DNA of 38,799 nt from Armatimonadota bacterium (GTDB lineage: Bacteria; Sysuimicrobiota; Sysuimicrobiia; Sysuimicrobiales; Segetimicrobiaceae): assembly GCA_047519495.1 (NCBI GenBank), contig JAPVSX010000118.1:1-38799 (forward strand), given 5' to 3'. Positions within the stretch are counted from its first letter, which is position 1. Every line of letters starts with the position of its first letter. The position numbers and the translations under genes are program-made. Positions 16,816 to 29,671 of the stretch are shown in pieces. Below the pieces are notes generated by a model. It had not been told where the DNA came from. It searched no databases and worked only from the letters and a program-made list of their open reading frames with translations.

Positions 16816-17007
16816 ATGGCACGACGCTGTGCGGTGTGCGGCAAGGAGCCGCGCACCGGCAACACGGTCAGTCATTCGCACCACAAGACGAAGCGGAGGT
16901 TCAACCCGAACCTTCAGCGGGTGCGCGCGCTGATCGCCGGCACCCGTCGGCGCGTCATGGTCTGCACCGCGTGTCTGAAGGCCGGCAAAGTGACACGGGT
17001 CGCGTGA
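16816..17007 (+). CDS. rpmB: 50S ribosomal protein L28 (four-Cys type)
   Basis: [29 protein letters not shown]...[10 protein letters not shown]; GGAGG RBS. Confidence 0.97.
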
Positions 17008-17034
17008 ACCGGTCCGGACCGCACACTCTTTCCC

Positions 17035-17937
17035 TTACATGACGGCCGGATGCTGCCCGGTCCGGAGGCCCGCGATCAGCGCCTCGACCTCCGGGCGGCC
17101 CAGCACATAGCGGTCCCCGCAGAACCGGCAGGTCACCTCGGCCTGCCCCTCTTGCGCCAGCAGCGCTTCGAGTTCCTCCGCGCCGAGTCCACACAGCATC
17201 TCCTCCACACGCCGGCGGCTGCAGCGGCACCGGAAGGCGACCGGGCTCATCGCTCCGAAGGACGGGTTCATCCCGCCAAGGGCCGTGGTGAGAATCTCCT
17301 CCGGCGTACACCCGTCGGCGACGAGCTGGGTGATCGGCGGGAGCCGGCGCGCCCGCGCCTCCAGGTCCGCGACGACCTCCTGGGCCGCCCCCGGCAGCGC
17401 CTGTACGAACAGGCCCCCGGACGCTAGGACGTGGAGATCGCGATCCACGAGTACGCCGAGCGAGACCACGGACGGCACCTGCTCCGACGACGCGAGGTAC
17501 GCGGCCAAATCCTCGGCGATCTCCCCCGACACGAGCGGCGCGCTGCCGTGATAGGGGGTCCGCATCCCCAGGTCCCGGGTCACGTGGAGCGTGCCCTGCC
17601 GCCCGACGAGCCCGCCCACGTCCAGCTTTCGCCGCTCGGTCTCGGGCAGGTCGGCATGCGGATTCATCGCGTAGCCGCGCACGTGGCCCTCGGCGTCTGC
17701 CTGGGTGATGATCGCCCCGATCGGGCCGTCCCCAAGCACCCGGAGCATGACCGACTGCCCGGCCTTCAGGCCCGCGCCGAGCAGGGCCGCCGCCGTCAGG
17801 CTGCGCCCGAGGGCGGCCGTGGCGGTGGCGGACGTCGTGTGCCGGATCCGCGCGTCCTCGACCATCTGGGTGGTAACCGTCGCCACGGCCCGGATCTTCT
17901 CGCCCGCGGCGGTACCTCGAATCATGTAGTCGCGCAT
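17035..17937 (-). CDS. hslO: Hsp33 redox-regulated chaperone
   Basis: TAALGR.LTA, GDGPIG, LVSGEIAEDL..YL..SEQVPS, CRCS...CRFC zinc switch. Confidence 0.95.
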   Translation of the reverse strand: MRDYMIRGTAAGEKIRAVATVTTQMVEDARIRHTTSATATAALGRSLTAAALLGAGLKAGQSVMLRVLGDGPIGAIITQADAEGHVRGYAMNPHADLPETERRKLDVGGLVGRQGTLHVTRDLGMRTPYHGSAPLVSGEIAEDLAAYLASSEQVPSVVSLGVLVDRDLHVLASGGLFVQALPGAAQEVVADLEARARRLPPITQLVADGCTPEEILTTALGGMNPSFGAMSPVAFRCRCSRRRVEEMLCGLGAEELEALLAQEGQAEVTCRFCGDRYVLGRPEVEALIAGLRTGQHPAVM

Positions 17938-17977: not shown

Positions 17978-18769
17978 TCACCCGCGCCACGCGTGCATGG
18001 GGTTGGCGGGCCCGTGGCCCCGGCCGAGCGGCAACGCCGCCTCGATCGCGCGGGTGATGAACACCTTCGCGTCCCGGATCGCCTCGGGGACGTCGCGCCC
18101 GCGGGCGAGCCCGGCGGTGATCGCGGCCGAGAAGACGCATCCGGTCCCGTGCGTGTGTTTCGTCAGTACCCGGCGCGCCTCGAGGCGCTCGATCCGGCCG
18201 CCGTCGAACAGGACGTCGACCGCCGCTCCCTCCAGGTGGCCGCCTTTCACGACGACGTACCGGGGCCCGAACGCGGCCAGGGCGCGCGCCGCCTCTTCCA
18301 TTTCCTCGAGCGTCCTGACCTCGCGGCCGGCGAGCGCACCGGCCTCGTGGAGGTTCGGCGTCACCACGAGGGCGAGCGGCAGGAGATCGCGGCGCAGCGC
18401 CGCCATCGCCTCAGGACGGAGGAGCGGCGTACCGGCCTTCGAGATCATGACCGGATCTACGACGAGCTGAGTGATCCGGTGCCGCCGGATCCGGTCGGCC
18501 ACGACCTCGATGATCGGCGCACTGCTCAGCATGCCGGTCTTCGCAGCGTCCACCCCGATGTCCGTCACGACCGCGTCGATCTGCCTGCCCACCTCTTCCG
18601 GCGGCAGCTCGACGATGCTGGTAACCTCCGCGGTGTTCTGCGCGGTTACGGCGGTGATCGCCGTCATCCCGAAAACGTCCAACGCGGAAAACGTCTTCAG
18701 GTCCGCCTGTATGCCCGCCCCACCCCCGGAGTCCGAGCCCGCGATCGACAGCGCACGTGGTATCGTCAT
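17978..18769 (-). CDS. thiD: Hydroxymethylpyrimidine/phosphomethylpyrimidine kinase
   Basis: LSIAGSDSGGGAGIQADLKTF, TAQNT, DPVM, TPNLHEA, THGTGC; GGAGG RBS. Confidence 0.96.
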   Translation of the reverse strand: MTIPRALSIAGSDSGGGAGIQADLKTFSALDVFGMTAITAVTAQNTAEVTSIVELPPEEVGRQIDAVVTDIGVDAAKTGMLSSAPIIEVVADRIRRHRITQLVVDPVMISKAGTPLLRPEAMAALRRDLLPLALVVTPNLHEAGALAGREVRTLEEMEEAARALAAFGPRYVVVKGGHLEGAAVDVLFDGGRIERLEARRVLTKHTHGTGCVFSAAITAGLARGRDVPEAIRDAKVFITRAIEAALPLGRGHGPANPMHAWRG

Positions 18770-18999
18770 TATGCCCCTCCTCCTCGTCACGCAGCCGGCA
18801 CAGCAATGCGCTGATGCTGAGCCGTGATCGCCCGGCGCAAATCGACCTGATTGCGCACTGGCTCCCCAGTCTCGCGGGAGATGCTTCCGAAAAGCCGGCC
18901 GCGATGGCCTGCCCTCCGCTCTCTATCGAGGGACGGATTCGAACGTCCGAGATGACGCACGGGGAGCCGGCGTGTGGCCGCAGGGAAGCGGCACCCGGC

Positions 19000-20028
19000 T
19001 CACCCGGTCCGGCCAGCGAAGTGGTCCCACCCCACCGAGACGAGCGGGGTCCGCCGTCCGTCGCGCCCGGCAAGCCAGCGGCCCTCAACCGGCGGGAGGA
19101 TCTCGCCGATCCGCGTGATCGGGACGCGGGTGGTCCGCGCGAGGCCGGCGGCGACCTCCCCGAACACCGGGTCGGCGGCGAAGAGCAGCTCGTAGTCCTC
19201 GCCCCCGCCGAGGGCCCAGGCCGCCGGGTCTACCCCGGCGGCCTGGGCCACCGCAACCAGCCCCTCCGCCAGCGGCAGTCGCGCGGGCTCGAGGCGAACG
19301 CCCACGCCGGACGCCTCGGCCAGGTGGAGCAAATCTGAGGCCGTGCCGTCGCTCGTATCGATCAGCGCGGTCACCAGGCCGCTCGCACCGAGCGCCTGCC
19401 CCACCGCCACACGCGGGACGGGCCGCAGGTAAGCCGCCGTGAGCGCCTCGCCGACTCCCGCCATCCGCACCTCGGGGTGGCGGAGCAGAAATAGCCCGGC
19501 CGCAGCCTTGCCCACCGCGCCCGTCACCCACACCCCATCGCCCGGCCGGGCGCCCGCGCGCCTGATGACCGTCTGCGCCTCTCCGAGCAGCGTCACGTCG
19601 ATGATGAGCGGCCCGGACGTCCGGGAGACGTTTCCGCCGACGACCACGACCTCGTAGGCGGATGCCCCCTCCCCCAGGCCGCCGTAGACGCCCTCCAGCC
19701 ATGCGACAGGAGTCTCGGGGGGGAGCGCCAGGGAGACGAGCGCGTACCGCGGTGTCCCGCCCATCGCCGCGACGTCGCTGAGGTTCACGGCGAGCGCCCG
19801 CCAGCCGATATCGGCGGGCGGGGCCAGCTCACGGACGAAGTGCACTCCTTCAACCTGGATATCGCACGTGGCGAGGACCTGCCCCGAGAACGACAGCACC
19901 GCGGTGTCGTCGCCGATGCCGACGGTGACGCCCGGGCCCGCGGCCGGCACGATCCGCCGGAGCCGCTCGATGAGCGCGAACTCTCCGAGCGCGGCGACGT
20001 CGCCGGGGTTACCCGGCGAGGGCGGCAT
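19000..20028 (-). CDS. thiL: Thiamine-monophosphate kinase
   Basis: GEFALI, GIGDDTAV, EGVHF, NLSDVAAMGG, DTSDG, GGEDYELLF, GWDHF. Confidence 0.95.
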   Translation of the reverse strand: MPPSPGNPGDVAALGEFALIERLRRIVPAAGPGVTVGIGDDTAVLSFSGQVLATCDIQVEGVHFVRELAPPADIGWRALAVNLSDVAAMGGTPRYALVSLALPPETPVAWLEGVYGGLGEGASAYEVVVVGGNVSRTSGPLIIDVTLLGEAQTVIRRAGARPGDGVWVTGAVGKAAAGLFLLRHPEVRMAGVGEALTAAYLRPVPRVAVGQALGASGLVTALIDTSDGTASDLLHLAEASGVGVRLEPARLPLAEGLVAVAQAAGVDPAAWALGGGEDYELLFAADPVFGEVAAGLARTTRVPITRIGEILPPVEGRWLAGRDGRRTPLVSVGWDHFAGRTG

Positions 20029-20698
20029 CAACCTGCTCCCTCAGGCGGCGGGTCGCCTCCACCATATCGTCCGCCAGGGTGACGGCGGTGATCACGGCCA
20101 CCCCCGCAGCGCCCGCCCGGATCACCGCGGCCGCATTCTCGACGGTGATCCCGCCGATCCCGACGACCGGCAGGGGTACAGCCCGGGAGACCGCCCGGAT
20201 CCGATCGAGCCCGACCGGGATGCCGGCATCCGCCTTCGTGCCCGTCGCGTAGACGGCGCCGACGCCGAGGTAGTCCGCCCCGCCGCGCCAGGCGGCCGCG
20301 GCCTCGTCCTCTGTCGCGGCGGACACGCCGAGGAACCGGCCGCCGCCCAGGAGCCGGCGTGCATCCTCGGCCGGAAGGTCGTCCTGGCCCACGTGCACAC
20401 CGTCGGCGCCGGCCGCGAGCGCGACGTCCACCCGGTCGTTGAGGATGAACGTCACGCCCGCCGCGCGGCACACCGGCGCGATCGCGCGCGCCGTCTCGAC
20501 GATCACACGTGCCGGTTCGTCCTTCATCCGCAGCTGCACCGCCGTCGCGCCGCCGCGGATTGCGGCCTCGGCGATCTCGGGGTGTGAGCGTCCCCGCGCA
20601 TTGGTCAAATCGGTGATGACGTACAGCCGCCAGTCCGCCCAACGCGGCCGCGTGCCGGCTTCGCCGGGCGGTCGCGTGCCGGCCTCGCCGGGCCTCAT
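20009..20698 (-). CDS. thiE: Thiamine-phosphate synthase
   Basis: LYVITD, QLRMK, NDRVDVA...DGVHVGQDD, DYLGVG.VY.T.TK, GIGGI. Confidence 0.96.
   Translation of the reverse strand: MRPGEAGTRPPGEAGTRPRWADWRLYVITDLTNARGRSHPEIAEAAIRGGATAVQLRMKDEPARVIVETARAIAPVCRAAGVTFILNDRVDVALAAGADGVHVGQDDLPAEDARRLLGGGRFLGVSAATEDEAAAAWRGGADYLGVGAVYATGTKADAGIPVGLDRIRAVSRAVPLPVVGIGGITVENAAAVIRAGAAGVAVITAVTLADDMVEATRRLREQVDAALAG
20646..20693. repeat. 24-bp tandem duplication in thiE N-terminus (PGEAGTRP x2)
   Basis: ggccgcgtgccggcttcgccgggc / ggtcgcgtgccggcctcgccgggc. Confidence 0.85.
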
Positions 20699-21501
20699 GC
20701 GCGCAGCCGCGCCCGGCCCAGCACGGCGGGCGCGGCCAGCGCGTCCAGCGCGTCCAGCAGCGCCACCCGGAACGTGCCCGGTCCGGCCGCCGTCTCGGCC
20801 GCGCGTTCCGCGGCCACCTCGAAGCAGAGCAGCCCGGCCGCGGCGGCCGCCAGCGCGTCAGGCTCCACGGCCGCAAACGCTGCGACCGCCGCGGTGGCCA
20901 TGCAGCCGCTCCCTGTGATCCGGGCCAGGAGCGGATGTCCGTTCTCGATCCGGACGACCCGGTCTCCGTCCGTAAGGAGGTCCACCGGCCCGGTCGCGGC
21001 GACGGCCGCGCCGGCGCGGCGGGCCAGGTCGCGCGCCAGATGGTCCACCGCCTCGACGCGGCCGGTCGCGTCGACCCCCCGCACGCCGCCGGCCTGCCCG
21101 GCGAGCGCCGCGATCTCGCCCGCGTTCCCCCGCACGCACGCGATCCTCAGCTCGTCCAGCAGCCGCCGGGCCTGCGCCGTCCGGAACGCGGTGGCCCCCG
21201 CGCCGACGGGGTCGAGGATCACGGGAATGCCGGCGGCATTCGCGCGTCGGCCGGCGAGGAGCATCGTGTTCACGGCCTGAGCGGTCAGGGTGCCGATGTT
21301 GAGCGCGAGCGCCCCGGCCGCGGCGACCATCTCCTCGACCTCCTCCGGCGCATGCGCCATGACCGGCGCAGCGCCGAGCGCCAGGGTGACGTTGGCGACG
21401 TCGTTGATCGTCACGACGTTCGTGATGTGGTGCACGAGCGGCCGTCGCTCGCGCACGCGTGCCAGGAGCGCCGCCGCGGTGGCCGCCGTGAGCGCGGTCA
21501 T
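20695..21501 (-). CDS. thiM: Hydroxyethylthiazole kinase
   Basis: PLVHHITN.V..NDVAN, LNIGTL, LDPVG.GAT..R, RGNAGEI, ITGSGC. Confidence 0.96.
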   Translation of the reverse strand: MTALTAATAAALLARVRERRPLVHHITNVVTINDVANVTLALGAAPVMAHAPEEVEEMVAAAGALALNIGTLTAQAVNTMLLAGRRANAAGIPVILDPVGAGATAFRTAQARRLLDELRIACVRGNAGEIAALAGQAGGVRGVDATGRVEAVDHLARDLARRAGAAVAATGPVDLLTDGDRVVRIENGHPLLARITGSGCMATAAVAAFAAVEPDALAAAAAGLLCFEVAAERAAETAAGPGTFRVALLDALDALAAPAVLGRARLRA

Positions 21502-21821
21502 CCGCCGCGCCTCCGGGCGGACAGCAGCCGGTGTACCCAGTGCCGCACCCGGAGCCGGAGGTCCACCCGGGCTACCGCCTCCGCCATCGCCGCCTCGGAG
21601 ACGGCCCGCGGCTCGTACATGACGTGCACGTTCTTCGTGGCCATGTCCACGTGGGCTGCCAGCACGCCGGGGAGCTCCTCCAGAGCCCGCTCCACCCGCC
21701 GCGCTCAGAGGTGGCAGAGGATGCGATCGGCGCGCAGGACCGCCGAGGCCTCGCCGCGCGCCGGCTCGTGTCGATCCTCGCGGCGGTCCATATCCGCCGC
21801 TTCCGCGCCCGGGGCGCTCAT
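21498..21821 (-). CDS. Heavy-metal-associated (HMA/CopZ/MerP-like) domain protein with in-frame UGA; probable selenoprotein (CxxU)
   Basis: One frame from ATG 21821 (ATGA overlap with the thiW stop) to TGA 21498 (ATGA overlap with the thiM start). Reads ...RILCHL-UGA(21705-21707)-ARRVERALEELPGVLAAHVDMATKNVHVMYEP, an HMA pattern with the second Cys of CxxC replaced by UGA. Confidence 0.75.
21662..21704 (-). promoter_or_regulatory. Candidate bacterial SECIS hairpin
   Basis: Immediately 3' of the UGA: upper stem GGGCUC/GAGCUC closing a UGGAG loop 22 nt after the UGA, possible lower stem GCGCG/CGUGC. Folded by eye only. Confidence 0.45.
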
Positions 21822-22339
21822 GACGGCGCCGTTCCCGGGCCGAGGATCGGCACCCGCCGCAGCACGCGGATCACGACATACCCGAGCACCGCACCTGGGA
21901 TGCTGCTGCTGAGGAACGCGATCTGGAACCACGCCCACGTGTGGCTGGAGCCCGCGAACGGCTGGAAGATCCAGGCGGCCAGCGTCGCGCCGATCGGGCC
22001 CGTGCCGATCGGCTCGCACAGCGCCGCCGCATCGTTGCGCAGAAGGCGGTAGGCATATCCGACGACAAGCGCGCCGAACGGGCTCCCGGGAAACGCGAAC
22101 AGCGTGCCCCAGTGCAGGTTGTAGCGCAGCGTGGCGGTCACAAGCGCCGCGCCCGCGGCGTACCACGGCCCGAGGAGGATTGCGGCGACCGCGTTGATGG
22201 TGTGCTGGAACGGGAACACCCGGGTCGGGCCGACCGGGATACTGAGCGGGCCCAGCGCGGCCGCGATCGCGGCGAACATGGCGGCGAGCACGAGCCGCCT
22301 CAACTGCTGTCCCTGATCACGGGGTCTGTGTTCATTCAT
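21818..22339 (-). CDS. thiW: ECF transporter S component ThiW (thiazole precursor)
   Basis: FPFQHTINAVAAILLGPWY, GTLFAFPGSPFGA, EPIGTG.IGA, SSIPGA. Confidence 0.92.
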   Translation of the reverse strand: MNEHRPRDQGQQLRRLVLAAMFAAIAAALGPLSIPVGPTRVFPFQHTINAVAAILLGPWYAAGAALVTATLRYNLHWGTLFAFPGSPFGALVVGYAYRLLRNDAAALCEPIGTGPIGATLAAWIFQPFAGSSHTWAWFQIAFLSSSIPGAVLGYVVIRVLRRVPILGPGTAPS

Positions 22340-23004
22340 ACCGGCCACTCCTCCATGCGCCACGCCATCTCCCAGAACAGATACTCGTAGCGCTGACTCG
22401 TAACAAATACTTCCCGAAGGGCGTCCTCGCGCCCCGGCGGCAGATCCGCGCCGAGCTGGTCGAGCAGCCCCGCCAGCCACCGCGCCATCGCTTCGTACTC
22501 GTCGGAGGTGTACATCTTGATCCAGTTCACGTACAGGGGCTGGCGCTCGGGCAGGCCGCGGGCGCGGAGCGCCTGGGCGATCTCCCAGTACCCATACGCG
22601 CAGGGGAGGATCGCTGCCAGGATCGTCGCGAGGTCTCCCGTCTCGGCCGCGAGGCGCAGATGGGAAGTGTACGCAACGGTCGTCGGCGCCGGCCGGGTCT
22701 CCTCGAGGGCCTCGGGCGCAATCCCGGCCGCCCAGCAGGCTTCCCGGTGCAGGTCCATCTCGGTGTTGAGCGTGACGTTGAGGAGGTCGGCGAACCGGGC
22801 GGCGACCCCGAGATCCTCCGCCCGCGCGGCGGCGAGCGCCAGCACGCGACAGTACTGGATGAGAAACAGATAATCCTGGCGCATGTAGTACTGGTACCGG
22901 TCACCCGGCAGGGAGCCGTCCCCCAGCCCCCCGACGAACGGGTGGGACACGATCTGTGCGTGGACCGGCGCCGCTGCTTCCTGGAGGCGCGCGAAGAGGC
23001 TCAT
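22336..23004 (-). CDS. tenA: Thiaminase II / aminopyrimidine aminohydrolase
   Basis: HPFV..L.DG.L, YMRQDYLFL, AILPC.YGYWEI catalytic Cys, WI.MY.S.EY, E..FWEMA. Confidence 0.93.
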   Translation of the reverse strand: MSLFARLQEAAAPVHAQIVSHPFVGGLGDGSLPGDRYQYYMRQDYLFLIQYCRVLALAAARAEDLGVAARFADLLNVTLNTEMDLHREACWAAGIAPEALEETRPAPTTVAYTSHLRLAAETGDLATILAAILPCAYGYWEIAQALRARGLPERQPLYVNWIKMYTSDEYEAMARWLAGLLDQLGADLPPGREDALREVFVTSQRYEYLFWEMAWRMEEWPV

Positions 23005-23011
23005 CGGCGGC

Positions 23012-24328
23012 CTACGGCGTGGGCCATAACGCGCCTTCCGCGTCCGCCCCGCACCACGCGGCGATCAGCCGGGCATAGACACGGGCGCAGGCTACGAGTT
23101 CCTCGGTCGCGACGTACTCGTCCACCGCGTGCGCCTGCTCCCACCCGCCGGGGCCATAGACGATGGCGGGGATCAGACGTGCGGCGAGCCATCCGGCGTC
23201 GCACACCGAGGGCGACATCCGCCGGGCGGGTGGGGCGCCGTAAACGTCCTGGTGCGCCTGTGCCATGACCGCGACGGCCGGGTGCGCGGGGTCGGTCTCG
23301 AACGCCGGGAACACCTCGCCCCGGTCCTGGATCATGGAGCGGCCGCCCCACCGGTACGCCGGCGGGTGCTCGCGGAGCCACGGGTCCGCCGCCGCGGCCG
23401 CCAGCACCGTCCGCTCGATCTCGCCGGTCACCGCCTCGGCCGTCTCGCCGGGATAAAAATGGACGGTGACCCACAGCGCACACCGGTCCGCGACGAACGC
23501 CGGGTGCCGGCCGCCCTCGATCGCCGCCGGGTTGATCGTCGTCGTCCCGGGGGGGAAGCCCGGATGCGACTTCATCACGGCCCAGTGGCGCTCGAGGGTC
23601 CCGAGCGCCCCGAGGACCACCATCATCTTCTCGATCGCACTCGCGCCGTGCACCCCGCCGCCAGCGTGGATCATCCGCCGGCGGACGGCGTCGTGGAACG
23701 TCTGCGGGCTCTGGATCGTGATCCACCCGGTGACGACCCCGCCCTGGCCGAGCGAGAGCTCGCGCGCCGTCGGCTCGGGCACGAGGGCAGCGTCCACGGG
23801 CGGCGTGCGCTCGAGCGCCGCAAGCGTCCCCGCCTCCCCCATCTCCTCCCCCGTGACCAGCTGGAGGACGACGTCGCCCCGCGGCCGGCCGAGCGTATGG
23901 AGGACCGCCTCGAGCGCGGTGAGCGCAGCCGCGATCCCGCCTTTCATGTCCGTCGCGCCCCGCCCGTAGATCCGCCCGCCCCGCCGGGCCGGGGTGAACG
24001 GCGGGCTGGTCCACGGCTCGCCGGGCGCGGTTGCGGCGACGTCCACGTGTCCGTTGATGAGGAGCGACCGCCCGCCGCCCCGGCCCGGCAGGCGCGCGAT
24101 CACCTGGGAGTCGCCCGGATAGAGGGGAACCGTCTCGGCCGCGGCCCCGAGGGACGTGAGGCGCTCCGTGAGAAATCGCTGGATCCCGTCGGTATTCCGG
24201 CCGGGCGGGCATGGCGTCTCGTACGCGATCAGGCTCTCGGTGAGGCGGAAGAGGTCCTCCTGGTGTGCGGTGAGATCCGCGTCGAGCGCCCGAACCGCGG
24301 GAGAAGCGCCGGCCGCCGCGCGGGTCAT
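23012..24328 (-). CDS. ylmB: M20/ArgE-family amidohydrolase, probable N-formyl-aminomethylpyrimidine deformylase (YlmB-like)
   Basis: INGHVDV, GRGATDMKGG, GEEMGEAG, HDAVRRRMIHAGGG, AIEGGRHPAFVAD, AHAVDE; sits between thiY-like and tenA. Confidence 0.85.
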   Translation of the reverse strand: MTRAAAGASPAVRALDADLTAHQEDLFRLTESLIAYETPCPPGRNTDGIQRFLTERLTSLGAAAETVPLYPGDSQVIARLPGRGGGRSLLINGHVDVAATAPGEPWTSPPFTPARRGGRIYGRGATDMKGGIAAALTALEAVLHTLGRPRGDVVLQLVTGEEMGEAGTLAALERTPPVDAALVPEPTARELSLGQGGVVTGWITIQSPQTFHDAVRRRMIHAGGGVHGASAIEKMMVVLGALGTLERHWAVMKSHPGFPPGTTTINPAAIEGGRHPAFVADRCALWVTVHFYPGETAEAVTGEIERTVLAAAAADPWLREHPPAYRWGGRSMIQDRGEVFPAFETDPAHPAVAVMAQAHQDVYGAPPARRMSPSVCDAGWLAARLIPAIVYGPGGWEQAHAVDEYVATEELVACARVYARLIAAWCGADAEGALWPTP

Positions 24329-25305
24329 GGCGCCAGGTTCGTGTACAGCTGGTCCGTGGGCACCGGGTGCGCGATCACCTGGTGGGCGGCCAGCCACCGG
24401 TCGAACGCCTCCCACTGCGAGCTCAGCTGCACCTGCGTGCGCGCGAAGTACGGCAGCGTCGCCTGGAACGACCGCTGGTTGAACGCATCGTCGAGCTTCG
24501 GGTCGTGGGCCTCCCGGACGTACTGCCGGAACGCCTCAGCGGGATGCGCCTCGGTGAATGCGATCCCGCGCCCAACCGCGTCCACGAACCGCCGCAGCAC
24601 CGTCGTGCGCGCCGCCACCCCCCGGTCGTTCGCGATCAGCACGAGCTCGTAGAAGGACGGGACCCCGTACTTCTCCGGCTCGAACATGCCGACGGCCTGG
24701 CCCTGCATCTCGATCTGCACCCGTTCCACGTTGCGGTAGGCGCCGACGACCGCGTCCACCTTGTGTGCGAGCAGCGCCGGCACCAGGTCGAACCCTACGT
24801 TGACCATCTTGAGGTTGGCCTCCGAGGCGCCGTCGCTGCGCATCACCTGATCCATCATCGCGTCGGCAAACCCGGTCACCGCGAAGCCGACGCGCCGGCC
24901 GACCAGGTCTTTCGGGGACCGGATCCCCGAGCTCCGCAAGAACATGACGGTCGTGAGCGGCTGGCCGACGAGCAGGCCGATGCTGCGAACGGGCAGTCCC
25001 TGGGCGCGCGCCAGGATGACGTTCGGCTCGTAGTTCACCGCCACGTCCACCCGCCCGACCGCCGCCAGCTTGAGTGGGTCGTCGGCGTTGGCCGGGACCT
25101 GGAAGGCCACGCGCAGGCCCGCCTGCGTGAAGTATCCTTCCCCCATCGCCGCGTAGAGCGGGACGTGGTCGGGGTTGGGGAACCAGTCGAGCATGAATGT
25201 CACCGGGGCGAGCGCCGCCGCCCCGCCGGCGCCCGCGCCCGCCGCCACGGCGAGCGCGACGGCCGTCGCCACCCACACCCGTCGGGTGATCCAGGATATC
25301 GTCAT
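24325..25305 (-). CDS. thiY: ThiY/NMT1-family ABC substrate-binding protein (HMP/FAMP precursor)
   Basis: LDWFPNPDH..LY.A..EGYF, YRNVE, YGVPSFYELV; N-terminal signal peptide with RR. Confidence 0.88.
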   Translation of the reverse strand: MTISWITRRVWVATAVALAVAAGAGAGGAAALAPVTFMLDWFPNPDHVPLYAAMGEGYFTQAGLRVAFQVPANADDPLKLAAVGRVDVAVNYEPNVILARAQGLPVRSIGLLVGQPLTTVMFLRSSGIRSPKDLVGRRVGFAVTGFADAMMDQVMRSDGASEANLKMVNVGFDLVPALLAHKVDAVVGAYRNVERVQIEMQGQAVGMFEPEKYGVPSFYELVLIANDRGVAARTTVLRRFVDAVGRGIAFTEAHPAEAFRQYVREAHDPKLDDAFNQRSFQATLPYFARTQVQLSSQWEAFDRWLAAHQVIAHPVPTDQLYTNLAP

Positions 25306-26186
25306 GCGGTGCCTGCACGCCGCCACGGCAGCGCCAGCCACTCGATGAGCGAGACCGCCGCAAAGAGGCCCATCGCCATCAGGCTCAGGTACACGATCGC
25401 GGCAAACACCAGATCGACGTGGAGCTGGGCGTTGGCGTGGATCATCAGGAACCCCAGCCCCTGGGTGGCACCGACCCACTCCCCGATCACGGCGCCGATC
25501 ACGCTCGTCGCGACCGCGATCCTGGTCCCTGAGAACACGAACGGCAGCGCGGCCGGAACCCGGATCACGAGGAGGATCTGCGCCGGCGTCGCACCCAGGA
25601 TCACGAGCAGGTTCACCGTGTCGGGGTCCGCGGCGCGGAGGCCGTCCACGGTGTTGACGACGATCGGGAAGAACACGATCAGCGCGGCCATGGCGATCTT
25701 GGACGCCATCCCGTAACCGAACCACACGATCAGGAGCGGGGCGATCGCGAACACCGGCACGGTCTGGCTCGCGATGATCAGCGGATAGACCGCCCGCTCG
25801 ACGGTCCGCGAGGAAAAGATCAGGATCGCAAGCCCGATCCCGACCACAAAGGCGATCGCAAAGCCGAGGAGCACCTCCTCAAGGGTGACCGCCGCCTGGG
25901 TGAGCAGGAGCCACTGATCGGTGAGCAGGAGCCCGGCGATGCGGCTGGGCGCCGGGAGGATGTAGAAGGGCACGCCGAACGCCCGCACGCCCGTTTCCCA
26001 GACGAGCAGGAAGAGCGTCAGCAGGCCGGCCGCGGGGCCCGCCTGAGCCACCCCCCGCCGCGCCTGGTCGAGGACCCAGGCACAGCCCTTGAGCCTGCGG
26101 CGTGAGTCGACACGCCCGCCGGGGGGGGCGGCCGCCGGGCGTCCGGCCGCGGACGGCGTGAGCTCGCGCGGTTGGAGGGCGGTCAC
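25302..26186 (-). CDS. thiX: ABC permease, ThiX/SsuC type
   Basis: LPAPS, SQTVPVFAIAPLLIVWFGYG, FFPIVVNT.DGL, GAVIGEW.GA..GLG. Confidence 0.88.
   Translation of the reverse strand: MTALQPRELTPSAAGRPAAAPPGGRVDSRRRLKGCAWVLDQARRGVAQAGPAAGLLTLFLLVWETGVRAFGVPFYILPAPSRIAGLLLTDQWLLLTQAAVTLEEVLLGFAIAFVVGIGLAILIFSSRTVERAVYPLIIASQTVPVFAIAPLLIVWFGYGMASKIAMAALIVFFPIVVNTVDGLRAADPDTVNLLVILGATPAQILLVIRVPAALPFVFSGTRIAVATSVIGAVIGEWVGATQGLGFLMIHANAQLHVDLVFAAIVYLSLMAMGLFAAVSLIEWLALPWRRAGTA
26091..26120 (-). repeat. Dispersed repeat family C (about 30 bp, GGCGT..ACGCC hairpin)
   Basis: ggcgggcgtgtcgactcacgccgcaggctc; related copies at 4490-4519, 12483-12528, 23008-23036 and 36664-36693. Confidence 0.75.
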
Positions 26187-26995
26187 GCCAGGGCCTCCGC
26201 CATTTCAGCCTGGAGCAGCTCGAGGAGCCGGGCCTTGGTGCGCACGACGCCGTCATTCACAGGGGTCCGCGGCCGGGGGAGATCCACGGCGACCTCGGCC
26301 CGAACCCGGCCCGGCCGCGCCGTGAGCACGTAGATCCGGTCCGAGAGGAGGACCGCCTCTTCCACGTCGTGGGTGATGAACAGGACCGTGCGCCCGAACT
26401 CGTCCCGCAGCCGGAGCAGGTAGCCCTGCATCGCCGCCCGCGTCATCGCGTCGAGCGCGCCGAAGGGCTCGTCCAGCACGAGCAGATCGCGCCGACACAG
26501 GAGCGTGCGGACGAGCGCGACCCGTTGGCGCATGCCGCCGGAGAGCAGCGCGGGATACGCCCGCTCGAACCCGCCCAGGCCGAACCGGCGGAGCATCTCG
26601 CGCGCTTCGGTCCGGGACGCAGCGCGGGGCACGCCCTGGATCTCCATCCCGAGGATCGCGTTGTCGAGGACGGTCCGCCACGGCAGCAGGAGGTCCTTCT
26701 GCTGCATGTAGGCGACCCGGCCGCGCGATCCTGACGGATGCGTGCCCGGCGCGCTTTGCGCGGCCCCCAGCAACTCGCCGTCGAGCCGGAGGCTGCCGCC
26801 GTCGGCGGGGATGAGGCCTGCGATGATGTTGCAGAGGGTGCTCTTGCCGCATCCGCTGGGGCCGAGCAGGCTGACGAACTCCCGGCGGCCGACGGTGAGC
26901 GACACGTCACGGAGCACCGGAAGCCAGTCTCCGGCGTGGCTGCCCGCCCGAGGGAAGCGCTTGTCGAGACCCGTGATTTCCAGAGCCGGTGCCAT
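26183..26995 (-). CDS. thiZ: ABC ATP-binding protein, ThiZ/SsuB type
   Basis: GPSGCGKST, YMQQKDLLLPWRT, LSGGMRQR, LDEPFGALD, ITHDVEEA; first gene after the TPP riboswitch. Confidence 0.9.
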   Translation of the reverse strand: MAPALEITGLDKRFPRAGSHAGDWLPVLRDVSLTVGRREFVSLLGPSGCGKSTLCNIIAGLIPADGGSLRLDGELLGAAQSAPGTHPSGSRGRVAYMQQKDLLLPWRTVLDNAILGMEIQGVPRAASRTEAREMLRRFGLGGFERAYPALLSGGMRQRVALVRTLLCRRDLLVLDEPFGALDAMTRAAMQGYLLRLRDEFGRTVLFITHDVEEAVLLSDRIYVLTARPGRVRAEVAVDLPRPRTPVNDGVVRTKARLLELLQAEMAEALA

Positions 26996-27017
26996 TATCG
27001 GTCTACCGCCGTCCAGC

Positions 27018-27048
27018 AAAAAACGCCGCTCCCGGAACCGGGGCGGCG
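27018..27048 (-). terminator. Intrinsic terminator (riboswitch expression platform)
   Basis: Minus strand CGCCGCCCCGGTTCCGGGAGCGGCG followed by TTTTTT, between the TPP aptamer and thiZ. Confidence 0.85.
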
Positions 27049-27053
27049 CGCGA

Positions 27054-27146
27054 CCTCTCCCTCCGCTGGCATTACCCAGATCAGGTTCCGGGGTCGATGG
27101 CAGGGTCAGCCATCCTCTCAGCCTGGTTCCCCAAGCTCCCCCACGC
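27054..27146 (-). ncRNA. TPP (THI-box) riboswitch
   Basis: Minus strand GGGGAGC...GCTGAGAG...GACCC..GAACCTGATCTGGGTAATGCCAGCGGAGGGA matches the TPP aptamer consensus, upstream of thiamine genes. Confidence 0.96.
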
Positions 27147-27167
27147 TATTCAGTTGAGACCGGCTCT

Positions 27168-27195
27168 AGTATAGCACGGGGCCCCGCCGCCGCAA
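27168..27195 (-). promoter_or_regulatory. Putative sigma70 promoter of the thiamine operon
   Basis: TTGCGG-N16-TATACT with extended -10 TG, just upstream of the riboswitch. Confidence 0.6.
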
Positions 27196-27252
27196 GTCCT
27201 GCCCTCATCCCCCAATCACCGGGGCGCTGGCCCCGGTGGCATCCGGCCGGGC

Positions 27253-28263
27253 TCAGCCGGCGCGCAGATCCTCAAGGATCCGCCAGAGCTCGTCCCTCGG
27301 CGGAGGAACGAGCGGCGTCTCGCGGCCGTCCCGGCGCACGCGCCGGCCCTCGGCGACGAAGACACCGATCGGCGTCGCCGAGATACCGGCCGCGTCAATC
27401 GCCGCCGCCGTCCGCGCGGGGTCGGGGCTGGCCACCAGGAGCGCGCCGCTGCCGATCAGTCCCAGCGGATCCACGCCGAGGTGCGTACAGATCGCCTGTG
27501 TCTCCGGCAGCACGGGCACGCGGTCGGCGTCCAGGCGCACGCCGATCCCCGACGCGACCGCCATCTCGTGCACCGCGCCGAGCACGCCCCCCTCGGTCAC
27601 GTCGTGCATCGCGCGTGCCCCCGCGGGGACCGCCGCGCGCCCCTCCGGCAGCACGCTGATCCGCTGCCGCAACGCCTTTGCCCGATCTAGGAGCGCCGGC
27701 CCCAGGGCCGGCCGGAGGCGCCCGTCGAGCTCTGCGGCGAGGATCGCGGTCCCTTCGATCCCCGCGCCTTTCGTCAGGAGCAGCGTGTCCCCCGGGCGCG
27801 CGCCGCCGCTGTGCACCACGCGGTCCCTGCGCGCGCGCCCGAGCGCCGTCATCACGACGATCGTGCGGTCGATCCCGGCCGTCACCTCGCTGTGGCCCCC
27901 GGCGATCTCGACGCCGAGCGATGCCGCCGCCTCCGAGGCGTCCCGCATCACCCGGGCGAGGTCGGCCTCGGGGTGTCCGGGCGCCAGCAGCACGGTCAGG
28001 GTCAGTGCGACGGGCTCCGCCCCGCACGCGGCCAGGTCGTTGGTCGCGACGTGGACGGCATACCAGCCCAGGTCCCGCCGGGTGCCGGTGATGGGGTCGG
28101 TCGTCAGCACCGCCACCTCTGCGCCGAAGTCGATGACCGCGCAGTCCTCCCCGAGCTGAGCGTGGACGAGCACGTCGTCACGCCGGGCGCCGAGGTGCGG
28201 ATAGACCAGCGCGGCCAGGACCTCCGGCGGAACCTTGCCGACCGGCAGCTCAGCGCCGGACAC
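27253..28263 (-). CDS. AIR synthase-related (PurM/HypE-like) protein
   Basis: GKVPP, GEDCAVID, TDPITG, NDLA..GA.P, GGHSEVT, ARPGD.LLLTK, MHDVTEGG. Confidence 0.88.
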   Translation of the reverse strand: MSGAELPVGKVPPEVLAALVYPHLGARRDDVLVHAQLGEDCAVIDFGAEVAVLTTDPITGTRRDLGWYAVHVATNDLAACGAEPVALTLTVLLAPGHPEADLARVMRDASEAAASLGVEIAGGHSEVTAGIDRTIVVMTALGRARRDRVVHSGGARPGDTLLLTKGAGIEGTAILAAELDGRLRPALGPALLDRAKALRQRISVLPEGRAAVPAGARAMHDVTEGGVLGAVHEMAVASGIGVRLDADRVPVLPETQAICTHLGVDPLGLIGSGALLVASPDPARTAAAIDAAGISATPIGVFVAEGRRVRRDGRETPLVPPPRDELWRILEDLRAG

Positions 28264-28478
28264 TAGGAGTTCCCGCCGGGGCGACGAATCAACACAAAGA
28301 GCACATGTGGCCTGCCAACAACTGCGTCCGTTGCGATGCGCTCAAATCTTGCGCCGGGAATGCCCGCGCCGTTGTCTGATTGGCCCGGCGTTTCGGAGCT
28401 GACCGCGCCGCTGCGCCTCAGTGCGGCATCCCGGCGTGTGGCGCGGCGGAACGGCCCGGTTGCATAGACGGGGACACG

Positions 28479-28715
28479 ATGCCGGAGCTCGCGTTTGTGC
28501 TCATCAGCCTCGACCGCAGCACCCCCGCGGAAGTCGCGCGGCTCGTGCGGGCGCTGCCGGGGGTCGCGACGGCCCACGCCGTGATGGGGGAGTTTGACGT
28601 GCTGGCGGTCGTTCATGCGAACGCCACGCGGGACATCGCGTCGCTCATCGAGGCCCACATTCGAACAATCGAGGGGGTCGCGCGGGTCGTCACGTGCGTC
28701 GCGGTCCCGACGTAG
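28479..28715 (+). CDS. Stand-alone Lrp/AsnC ligand-binding (RAM) domain protein
   Basis: AFVLI...LPGV..AHAVMGEFDVLA.V...IRTIEGV..VVTC; no HTH. Confidence 0.85.
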   Translation: MPELAFVLISLDRSTPAEVARLVRALPGVATAHAVMGEFDVLAVVHANATRDIASLIEAHIRTIEGVARVVTCVAVPT

Positions 28716-28747
28716 TCCCGCGGGGAACGCTCCCGCCTCAGCTCGGT

Positions 28748-29671
28748 TTAGACGGCCACCCGAGGCGTGATCAGGGTCATTTTCGCGAGGATCTCCTGCG
28801 CGGCCTCGAGCGCGCGCAGGCCGTGCTCTCCCGGCACCAGCGGCGCCGCCTCTCCCCGTACGCAGCCGACGAAGTGGGTCAGCTCGGCCCGCAGCGGTTC
28901 CTCCCCCTTCACCACCGTGCGGCGCTGCGTGCCGTGCCGCCGCACCGTGATCTGCTGGCTGAGGTAATTGAGGTGGATGAACCCGTCCGGCAGCGTGATC
29001 TCGAGCTCCGCCGCCTTCACCGGCGAGACGCGGCTGGCCACGAAGCTGGTCAGGCACCCGCTCCGCAGCGCGAGGTGCGCGACGGCCAGGTCCTCGTCCT
29101 CCCCGTGAATCGCCGCGCCGATCGCGCTCACCCGCGCCACCGGCGACCGCATCAGGGTGAGGATGATGTCCAGGTCGTGGATCATCAGGTCGAGCACGAC
29201 GCCGACGTCCATCACCCGGCGCGGGTTCCAGGGCCGCACCCGCCGGACCTGGACGAAGAGCGGATCGGTGACGAGCTCGCGCAGCGCCTGCACGGCCGGC
29301 TTGAACCGCTCCACGTGGCCGACGAGGAGGGTCACCCCGCGGCGCTGGGCCAGGTCGACGAGCTCGGCCGCCTGCTCGACCGTCGTCGTGATCGGCTTCT
29401 CGACGAGCACATGCACGCCGCGCTGGAGGAACTCGCGGGCGATCTCGTAGTGCAGCGCGGTCGGGACCACGATGCTGACCGCGTCCACTCGCCCGAACAG
29501 CATCCGGTAGTCGCGGTACCCTGCGGTGCTGTACCGGCGGGCGAACGCGCCGACCTCGCGGGGCACCGTGTCCACGACGCCGGCCAGCGTGACGCCCGGG
29601 AGGTGGTGGTAGATCCGCACGTGATGCTGTCCCCACTGGCCCAGGCCCACGACGCCGACGCGAATCGGCAT
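28748..29671 (-). CDS. Gfo/Idh/MocA NAD-dependent oxidoreductase (WbpB/GnnA-like)
   Basis: GVVGLGQWG, EKPI, VGHVERFKP, DLMIHDLD; GGAGG RBS. Confidence 0.9.
   Translation of the reverse strand: MPIRVGVVGLGQWGQHHVRIYHHLPGVTLAGVVDTVPREVGAFARRYSTAGYRDYRMLFGRVDAVSIVVPTALHYEIAREFLQRGVHVLVEKPITTTVEQAAELVDLAQRRGVTLLVGHVERFKPAVQALRELVTDPLFVQVRRVRPWNPRRVMDVGVVLDLMIHDLDIILTLMRSPVARVSAIGAAIHGEDEDLAVAHLALRSGCLTSFVASRVSPVKAAELEITLPDGFIHLNYLSQQITVRRHGTQRRTVVKGEEPLRAELTHFVGCVRGEAAPLVPGEHGLRALEAAQEILAKMTLITPRVAV

Follow-up and report, generated by a model that had tools for sequence, protein, structure and literature searches.

We focus here on a small gene within a thiamine salvage cluster of an Armatimonadota bacterium, carried by contig JAPVSX010000118.1 of assembly GCA_047519495.1; the whole stretch analysed, 38,799 nucleotides long, is referred to as the window. 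On the minus strand, between thiW and thiM, a single frame runs from an ATG at 21821–21819 to a terminal TGA at 21500–21498, and its sole internal TGA lies at 21707–21705. This is very probably a genuine selenoprotein gene, in which UGA-39 would specify selenocysteine (Sec) in an HMA-fold product, a reading that is built from comparison of sequences. The features that matter most for it are the following.

21498 to 21821, minus strand: predicted selenoprotein gene, 107 codons plus stop, for an HMA-fold product with C36-x-x-U39
21705 to 21707, minus strand: proposed Sec codon UGA (U39), where the HMA CxxC motif has its second Cys
21714 to 21716, minus strand: Cys36 codon TGC, first residue of CxxU, an invariant Cys that is encoded by TGC or TGT in orthologues
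21672 to 21688, minus strand: candidate upper stem-loop of a bacterial selenocysteine insertion sequence (bSECIS), with 7 base pairs here and 8–9 in most orthologues, loop GGA at 21681–21679 and closing pair U.G
21664 to 21699, minus strand: possible lower SECIS stem, pairing alignment columns 9–10 with 43–44 and 14–16 with 38–40 in an RNAalifold consensus of 10 sequences

An interrupted HMA frame between thiW and thiM

Read through the internal TGA, the frame gives a protein of 107 residues, MSAPG...RADRILC36-H-L-U39-ARRVERALEELPGV..., for which an alternative start exists at ATG 21791–21789. The initial annotation had proposed that two listed open reading frames (ORFs) are in fact one, interrupted by TGA 21705–21707, and translation confirms this. 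ORF calling with translation table 11 yields just a 65-residue piece at 21498–21695, and the public protein database entry P0003 is exactly this fragment, which bears out the expectation that standard pipelines would record only a motif-less piece of the protein. The limits of the ORFs also establish the tight coupling that had been described for this position and for other junctions in the operon. The stop of thiW and the start of the selenoprotein gene share the ATGA at 21821–21818, the stop of the selenoprotein gene and the start of thiM share the ATGA at 21501–21498, and the identical 4-base overlap is found between tenA and thiW and between thiM and thiE.

The Pfam HMA model PF00403 matches across the TGA, over residues 29–83, with 46.9 bits against 24.8 and an E-value of 3.7e-12 (C being substituted for U in the search). 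The UGA aligns with the second Cys of CxxC both in this model and in the ordinary HMA genes of relatives, in agreement with the placement suggested at the outset.

The TGA also has read support. Logan contigs from 4 soil runs belonging to 2 studies carry it unchanged, three of these runs possibly being the source of the window's own assembly. Among the sequencing runs listed for this stretch, none is of RNA. A sequencing error at the TGA is ruled out by these contigs together with the 31 TGA-bearing loci described below. Between 21400 and 21900, the Logan contigs differ from the window at one position only, 21761 (C>T). The T occurs in contigs of three soil runs and changes Ala21 to Thr on the coding strand, within the variable N-terminus; it is probably strain variation.

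The internal TGA, its hairpin and the decoding machinery

First of all, the TGA is conserved. Each of the 10 best matches to the read-through protein in 61 related genomes has one in-frame TGA, at the identical C-x-x-TGA position. A profile built from these ten sequences and run over all 94 genomes of the class finds an orthologue in 12 of them, at 85.9–155.9 bits, all with the TGA; they belong to the window's own genus and to genera g2 (7 of 7 genomes), g3 (1 of 1) and g24 (3 of 4). The next-best match in the class scores 58.3 bits and is an ordinary CxxC HMA. Both tallies, for the relatives and for the class, include the unpublished genomes G034 and G078, neither of which contributes a family member or a sequence. 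A scan of metagenomes returned 22 loci, of which 19 are family members, each with the TGA at the same place, and the other 3 are P-type ATPases with CASC; a scan of genome contigs returned 9 loci, namely 6 family loci that were already known and 3 proteobacterial P-type ATPases. The TGA is thus kept in 31/31 family loci (12 genomes and 19 metagenome contigs, encoding 24 distinct proteins), and the concern that it might be peculiar to this assembly does not hold. The two middle residues of the family motif, C-[HRTGE]-[LR]-U, are variable. The terminal codon was read at 29 loci, 27 of which stop with TGA and 2 with TAG.

No Cys form occurs among the 31 family loci. A word-based search of 5.8 billion proteins returned 5 clusters, all of them fragments of 63–66 residues and none a Cys form. 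A profile search of 1.84 billion representatives gave 9134 matches at E-values up to 0.001, and the best 150 of these contain no single-domain, full-length Cys form of at least 83 bits; they are filled by multi-HMA proteins whose repeats add up, and weaker Cys forms could lie below them. The same 150 include two family fragments that match as single stretches, P0054 (70 residues) and P0087 (67 residues).

Second, the sequence on either side of the TGA is under selection. The ratio of nonsynonymous to synonymous differences (pN/pS), summed over 45 pairs, is 0.38 for the 13 codons before the TGA and 0.57 for the 58 codons after it, so the relaxed selection downstream that had been named as the mark of a pseudogene is not seen. 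Synonymous differences occur at Cys36 (TGC/TGT) and at flanking Arg, Ala, Asp and Leu codons. These synonymous changes, taken with a low pN/pS on both sides, indicate that both halves are translated in this frame.

Third, a hairpin follows the TGA. The initial annotation had placed a hairpin with a G-containing loop 22 nt downstream; such a hairpin does exist, fits the bSECIS model and covaries, but its stem begins 16 nt and its GGA loop 23 nt past the UGA. When 21 distinct segments of 54 nt, each with the TGA as its first codon, are aligned, columns 19–26 pair with columns 30–37, and standard pairs fill 97.0% of the 168 cells, as against only 49–71% when the register is slid by 1–3 columns. 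Three of the 8 pairs show compensatory changes, in 11 cells (G-C to C-G, U-A to C-G and C-G to U-A), and two stem pairs vary on one side with pairing kept, as G-U/A-U and U-G/U-A; the resulting covariation score was reached by 0 of 500 shuffles. The loop G-G-A is invariant, though its first G is a synonymous third position. The minimum free energy (MFE) of the hairpin ranges from -8.8 to -14.4 kcal/mol, and the lower stem has weaker support than the upper one. The consensus bSECIS, as given in the available part of a 2026 review (PMC13188914), has a loop of 3–9 nt on an upper stem of 4–16 base pairs, G in the first two loop positions with N1-G-[G/U]-N-N2 as the usual pattern, a distance of 16–37 nt from UGA to loop, and an MFE of -7.5 kcal/mol or lower. 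The hairpin agrees with all four of these published constraints, its own loop pattern being U-G-G-A-G.

Codon usage and controls both bear on whether the stem merely reflects the peptide ALEEL that it encodes. Within the stem, Ala is written GCT in 16/21 sequences and GCC, with a compensating partner, in the other 5/21, yet GCT is rare locally: across nine neighbouring genes it makes up 19 of 444 Ala codons. In the same register, 39 ordinary Cys-HMA segments from the fetched loci form 1–6 of the 8 pairs, and the six of these controls that encode ALExLxG form 4–6, compared with 7–8 in 21/21 family sequences. Because of this rare GCT usage and these Cys-HMA controls, the hairpin is not taken to be a by-product of the peptide.

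Finally, the genome holds the machinery to read such a codon. A search for tRNA-Sec, selA, selB and selD had been recommended, and all are present above curated cut-offs in the source genome, which is 94% complete in 376 contigs: tRNA-Sec at 72.7 bits (cut-off 47; anticodon tca according to ARAGORN), SelA at 477.1 bits, SelB at 330.5 bits (358.4 with a neighbouring match in the same frame; cut-off 242.25) and SelD at 385.6 bits (cut-off 125). SelA is found in 77/94 genomes of the class, a tally that likewise counts G034 and G078. We propose that UGA-39 would be decoded as Sec by SelB and tRNA-Sec, directed by the bSECIS hairpin inside the coding sequence.

Some further observations concern this machinery. 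Contig C57 of the source genome (G000) carries tRNA-Sec (16958–17048), selB (25796–27667) and selA (27861–28952) within 12 kb, selA and selB being adjacent. The genome's SelD, on contig C227 (locus L011), is itself a selenoprotein, with its TGA at locus position 1531 in the context ...ACAG-U-ASKL; the hairpin there has its stem 25 nt past the UGA and a loop, GUU, unlike that of the HMA gene. SelA is matched twice in each of two genomes from the window's family, in G012 on contigs C34 and C11 and in G005 on contigs C106 and C42; their contamination is 6% and 5%, respectively, and a second organism in the bin is possible.

Thiamine genes around the family

The window's copy of the gene lies in a cluster that is headed by a thiamine pyrophosphate (TPP) riboswitch and that contains, apart from the selenoprotein gene itself, the following elements, given in the direction of transcription.

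27041 to 27152, minus strand: TPP riboswitch at the head of the cluster (Rfam RF00059, 56.8 bits against 54.3)
24325 to 27019, minus strand: ABC importer, three genes with Pfam matches, itemized in the next three lines
26183 to 27019, minus strand: importer ATPase (Pfam ABC_tran, 105.7 bits)
25302 to 26186, minus strand: importer permease (Pfam BPD_transp_1, 100.2 bits)
24325 to 25308, minus strand: NMT1/THI5-like binding protein (Pfam NMT1, 220 bits)
23012 to 24415, minus strand: M20-family deacylase, start uncertain (Pfam Peptidase_M20; NCBIfam NF006370, 542.5 bits)
22336 to 23004, minus strand: tenA (Pfam TENA_THI-4, 154.7 bits)
21818 to 22339, minus strand: thiW, S component of an energy-coupling factor (ECF) transporter (Pfam ThiW, 151.9 bits; NCBIfam thiW, 145.3 bits against 84.35)
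20695 to 21501, minus strand: thiM, hydroxyethylthiazole kinase (Pfam HK, 279.1 bits)
20009 to 20698, minus strand: thiE, thiamine-phosphate synthase (Pfam TMP-TENI, 207.6 bits)
19000 to 20031, minus strand: thiL, thiamine-phosphate kinase, start uncertain (NCBIfam thiL, 290.4 bits against 184.15)

With the selenoprotein gene between thiW and thiM, the cluster comprises ten genes, all on the minus strand and all overlapping or nearly abutting; the conserved ATG of thiW at 22339, for example, overlaps the tenA stop. The riboswitch at its head upholds the earlier description of a TPP-riboswitch thiamine operon, with the qualification that it lies 5.2 kb upstream of the selenoprotein gene and is not adjacent to it. 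A scan of 18500–27400 found no clear internal terminator: two terminator-like structures were counted over both strands, at chance level given a shuffle mean of 1.6. Co-transcription of the selenoprotein gene with the thiamine salvage genes and its translational coupling to them, as predicted from this arrangement, may be regarded as shown or nearly so, and the protein would be translated by ATGA coupling between thiW and thiM. The importer and deacylase at 23012–27019 on the minus strand, together with TenA, presumably resemble the ThiXYZ type of system for salvage of base-degraded thiamine (formylaminopyrimidine), and the M20 deacylase at 23012–24415 may be YlmB-like.

The relatives show the same arrangement. 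The order tenA-thiW-X-thiM-thiE, in which X is the selenoprotein gene, is found at 9 genome loci and, as far as the contigs reach, at all 19 metagenome loci; the conserved synteny with thiW and thiM that had been anticipated thus holds wherever the flanks are on the contig. A second and independent context strengthens the thiamine link. In three genomes of genus g24, which belongs to another family, 48 nt separate the end of a TPP riboswitch (61.6, 61.8 and 54.8 bits) from the start codon of the selenoprotein gene, which is followed by thiT (Pfam Thia_YuaJ, 166 bits) and thiamine pyrophosphokinase (TPK); here too the stop of the selenoprotein gene overlaps the next start, that of thiT, as ATGA. 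Both operon contexts have in common a kinase acting on thiazole-bearing molecules and the S component of an ECF transporter. Control by a TPP riboswitch in both contexts suggests that the selenoprotein would be made when TPP is scarce. The initial idea of a Sec-containing HMA protein co-regulated with thiamine salvage is thereby supported by TGA conservation, the bSECIS, the machinery, selection and synteny together.

The gene is not a fixed part of these operons. The fourth g24 genome (G086; L132, 1342–2651) has riboswitch, thiT and TPK without it, and tenA-thiW-thiM-thiE lacks it in genera g4, g5 and g6, which belong to the window's family (the loci without the gene are L132, L080–L085, L089, L095, L100, L101 and L105). 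Since sister genera and genomes possess the same operons minus the gene, its roughly 300 bp form an accessory cassette. At two metagenome loci (L125, 945–1070, and L126, 836–961) only the final 42 residues of thiW are matched, with tenA intact on one side and the selenoprotein gene intact on the other, which means that the selenoprotein can persist where thiW does not.

Directly upstream of the window's riboswitch is a gene of the AIR-synthase family (27253–28263, minus strand), whose best matches are to HypE, SelD and ThiL, all far below their cut-offs. A gene of this family also stands beside the riboswitch in 4/4 g24 genomes (L061, 241–1254; L062, 328–1308; L063, 1949–2926; L132, 338–1339), the g24 copies being 72–77% identical to that of L061. 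This conserved position may be meaningful.

The protein, its possible role and the alternatives

The product would be a cytoplasmic protein of 107 residues with an HMA fold of the CopZ/MerP type. An AlphaFold2 (AF2) model computed on the ten-sequence alignment, with a predicted local distance difference test (pLDDT) score of 79.1, has a strand at 25–30, a helix at 37–48, strands at 53–59 and 64–69 and a long helix at 76–105, and places the Cys36/Sec39 pair at the junction of strand 1 and helix 1. Its first 62–69 residues superpose on HMA domains. The best Foldseek match is Bacillus subtilis CopZ (2qif, root-mean-square deviation (rmsd) 0.7 over 62 columns), followed by CopA domains, ATP7B and MerP, and VIA, which is independent of Foldseek, gives Z scores of 10.6–9.6 to ATP7B, CopZ, CsoZ, Ccc2a and CopA and also lists NmerA and GolB. 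Invariant in the 24 distinct proteins are R33, C36, U39, A40, R42, V43, A46-L47-E48, L50-P51-G52, V58 and H94, and D87, R89, L90, R93 and H97 are nearly so. After the domain follows a conserved basic C-terminal extension, R-V-D-x-R-L-R-x-R-H-W-x-H, which is modelled as one long helix; its segment V-D-L-R-L-R-V-R alternates hydrophobic and basic residues, and it might instead form a strand.

Several known systems invite comparison. The metallochaperones CopZ, Atx1 and MerP (PF00403) share the position of the motif and, over the superposed residues, the fold (rmsd 0.7 to 2qif; VIA Z about 10), and copper chaperones have the motif M-T-C-x-x-C (MxCxxC). The protein described here differs from them in having Sec for the second Cys and no Met-Thr before the first, in a long basic helix where strand 4 is not predicted, and in control by a TPP riboswitch instead of a metal regulator; the CopZ models NF033795, NF033794 and TIGR00003 score it at 37.1, 32.5 and 27.3 bits, against cut-offs of 91, 95 and 62. 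The UxxC cation-transporting ATPase selenoprotein carries its Sec in the HMA domain, likewise within the metal-binding motif. In that large P-type pump the Sec replaces the first Cys, whereas the protein here is free-standing, has 107 residues and CxxU, and has no pump in its vicinity. Among redox selenoproteins, the small CxxU ones in Table 1 of the review (SelW-like, GrdA and AhpD-like) also have CxxU at a strand-helix junction of a small protein, but they have a thioredoxin-like fold unrelated to HMA and no sequence similarity to it. The closest curated family is NF041115, 'UxxU_metal_bind' metal-binding (seleno)protein, which is also small, single-domain and HMA-like with Sec in a CxxC-type motif. 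It is the best NCBIfam match (residues 26–92, E = 2.8e-11), yet at 43.4 bits against a cut-off of 95 the protein is not a member; NF041115 has two Sec (UxxU), the family here one (CxxU) and a basic C-terminal extension. NCBIfam also has a MerT/CopZ fusion-like selenoprotein, and the protein here falls below every curated NCBIfam cut-off compared. HMA-type selenoproteins are thus already known, and Table 1 of the review (PMC13188914) lists two, the UxxC cation-transporting ATPase and the UxxU form NF041115. Among the 119 families and subfamilies of that table there is no PF00403 CxxU entry, the word 'thiamin' is absent from the text as available, and no thiamine operon context is mentioned for NF041115 (PMC13188914). 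In the literature we found nothing that links a selenoprotein with thiamine genes and no HMA CxxU selenoprotein, with the caveat that survey supplements could still list the family. The CxxU, thiamine-linked HMA form appears to be a new subfamily of the already known HMA-type selenoproteins, and it matches no curated model.

As for function, the Cys-Sec pair may help in the salvage of thiazole-bearing compounds. The selenoprotein probably serves the acquisition of vitamin B1 because its control is by TPP and not by a metal sensor and because every identified neighbour is a thi gene. If the protein is real, there is nearly an even chance that it acts as a selenol/thiol redox protein, one that would reduce oxidised thiamine or thiazole precursors (disulfides or ring-opened thiols) after import and before phosphorylation. 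The strict retention of Sec tilts the balance towards redox chemistry, as does the expectation, in the available part of the review, that most uncharacterised CxxU and UxxC selenoproteins are redox proteins (PMC13188914). Again given a real protein, binding of a soft metal is a substantial possibility that stays clearly below even, and a small share goes to docking or sensing at the transporter or kinase, or to something else; redox chemistry on the sulfur of thiazole or thiamine compounds thus ranks somewhat ahead of soft-metal binding. In soil, thiamine and its thiazole part are present partly as disulfides or in ring-opened thiol forms. A more specific and decidedly tentative prediction, which we consider rather unlikely as it stands, is that the Cys-Sec HMA protein is a dedicated reductase of B1 salvage. 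After uptake by ThiT or ThiW, its selenol would attack the disulfide and Cys36 would resolve the selenenyl-sulfide, and the freed thiol would re-close to thiamine or thiazole for TPK or ThiM. If true, vitamin B1 metabolism would gain its first selenoenzyme, B1 salvage a step that has been missing, and the HMA fold its first catalytic redox use.

The alternative that survives best, possible though well short of an even chance, is that the selenoprotein is real and uses its Cys-Sec pair to bind a soft metal, for instance Cu(I), Hg(II), Ag(I) or Zn, in the manner of CopZ or MerP, guarding thiamine and thiazole uptake and phosphorylation or handing the metal over. All strong structural neighbours are indeed metal-binding HMA domains (CopZ, CopA, ATP7B, MerP, NmerA, GolB), the best NCBIfam match is a metal-binding (seleno)protein (NF041115), and the review relates the HMA-type and transporter selenoproteins known so far to metals or metalloids (PMC13188914). 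On the other hand, expression is under a TPP riboswitch and not a metal sensor, and the genes identified within 1.5–3 kb on each side of the 31 loci are all thi genes, no search having been aimed at metal genes. The Met-Thr of the chaperone motif is replaced by [ILM]-[LVR] before Cys36, with an invariant Arg where Gly is usual, and the CopZ, MerP and NF041115 models all score below cut-off. Moreover, Cys is usually enough for metal sites, yet no Cys form was found in the searches described above.

An unlikely alternative is that the selenoprotein, if real, docks on or gates either the ECF S component (ThiW or ThiT) or the kinase encoded next, with contacts through its basic C-terminus and a Cys-Sec pair that senses redox state or ligand. 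The gene always adjoins an S component with ATGA coupling, after thiW in family f1 and before thiT in g24, and conservation reaches into the C-terminal extension, where H94 never varies and R89, L90, R93 and H97 hardly do. Against this, ThiW and ThiT belong to different Pfam families, the selenoprotein gene is intact at the two metagenome loci where thiW is cut to a 42-residue match, and sister genera use the same transporters without the selenoprotein.

That the TGA is a true stop, within a nonsense pseudogene or between two ORFs (a 38-codon upstream peptide and the 65-residue piece restarted at GTG 21695), is highly improbable. Table 11 does yield exactly these pieces, and databases hold fragments of 63–70 residues as proteins, but the TGA stands in 31/31 loci, which span two families and at least four genera, the codons before and after it are under purifying selection, the HMA match spans it, the restart codon is GTC in 2/21 distinct sequences, and a covarying hairpin in SECIS position coincides with a full Sec machinery. 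Most improbable of all is that this lineage inserts an ordinary amino acid at UGA, whether because its code has changed or because read-through is general; nothing specific speaks for this beyond a frame that is open under any code reading TGA as a residue. The gene itself ends in TGA in 27/29 loci, and thiW and tenA end in TGA within their ATGA overlaps, so that TGA also serves as an ordinary stop here and a code change is not the explanation, while tRNA-Sec, SelA, SelB and SelD are present and the hairpin lies at bSECIS distance.

Several points nevertheless weigh against a Sec-containing protein of thiamine salvage as we describe it. First, the 71 nt after the TGA, folded alone, are no more stable than shuffles (z +1.11; 174/200 shuffles at least as stable), so that the hairpin is argued from the alignment and not from energy; at 3 nt its loop is as short as the bSECIS model allows, and the compensatory changes trace to about three lineages. 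Second, every member comes from one class of uncultured soil bacteria, and the loci are kin, so independent events are far fewer than 31 loci or 24 proteins would imply. Third, there is no close Cys-form orthologue, and the pairing of Cys with Sec relies on alignment to distant HMA domains. Fourth, the AF2 model, made from only 10 sequences, draws beta-alpha-beta-beta and a long helix where the canonical order is beta-alpha-beta-beta-alpha-beta, strand 4 being absent, and we know of no precedent for the HMA fold as a disulfide reductase. Finally, sister genera with otherwise identical operons lack the gene, so salvage works without the selenoprotein.

The finding matters at several levels. For annotation, pipelines record a motif-less fragment of 63–70 residues, once named 'copper chaperone CopZ', and a dedicated model is needed. 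As a natural bSECIS, the hairpin is compact and its compensatory pairs are mapped, in a genome with a G+C content of 72%. For the selenoproteome, the family adds an HMA CxxU subfamily to a catalogue of 119 families and subfamilies in which neither it nor a thiamine link occurs (PMC13188914). For the bacteria themselves, gene order indicates that a putative selenium-dependent accessory gene is inserted independently in a thiazole-salvage operon and in a thiamine-uptake operon, both under predicted TPP riboswitch control. To our knowledge, current pathway schemes contain no salvage step that uses a very reactive thiol-type residue. The two insertions point to just such a step, acting on thiazole-bearing compounds in soil, and thus to an unrecognised selenium-dependent step in the recycling of vitamin B1.

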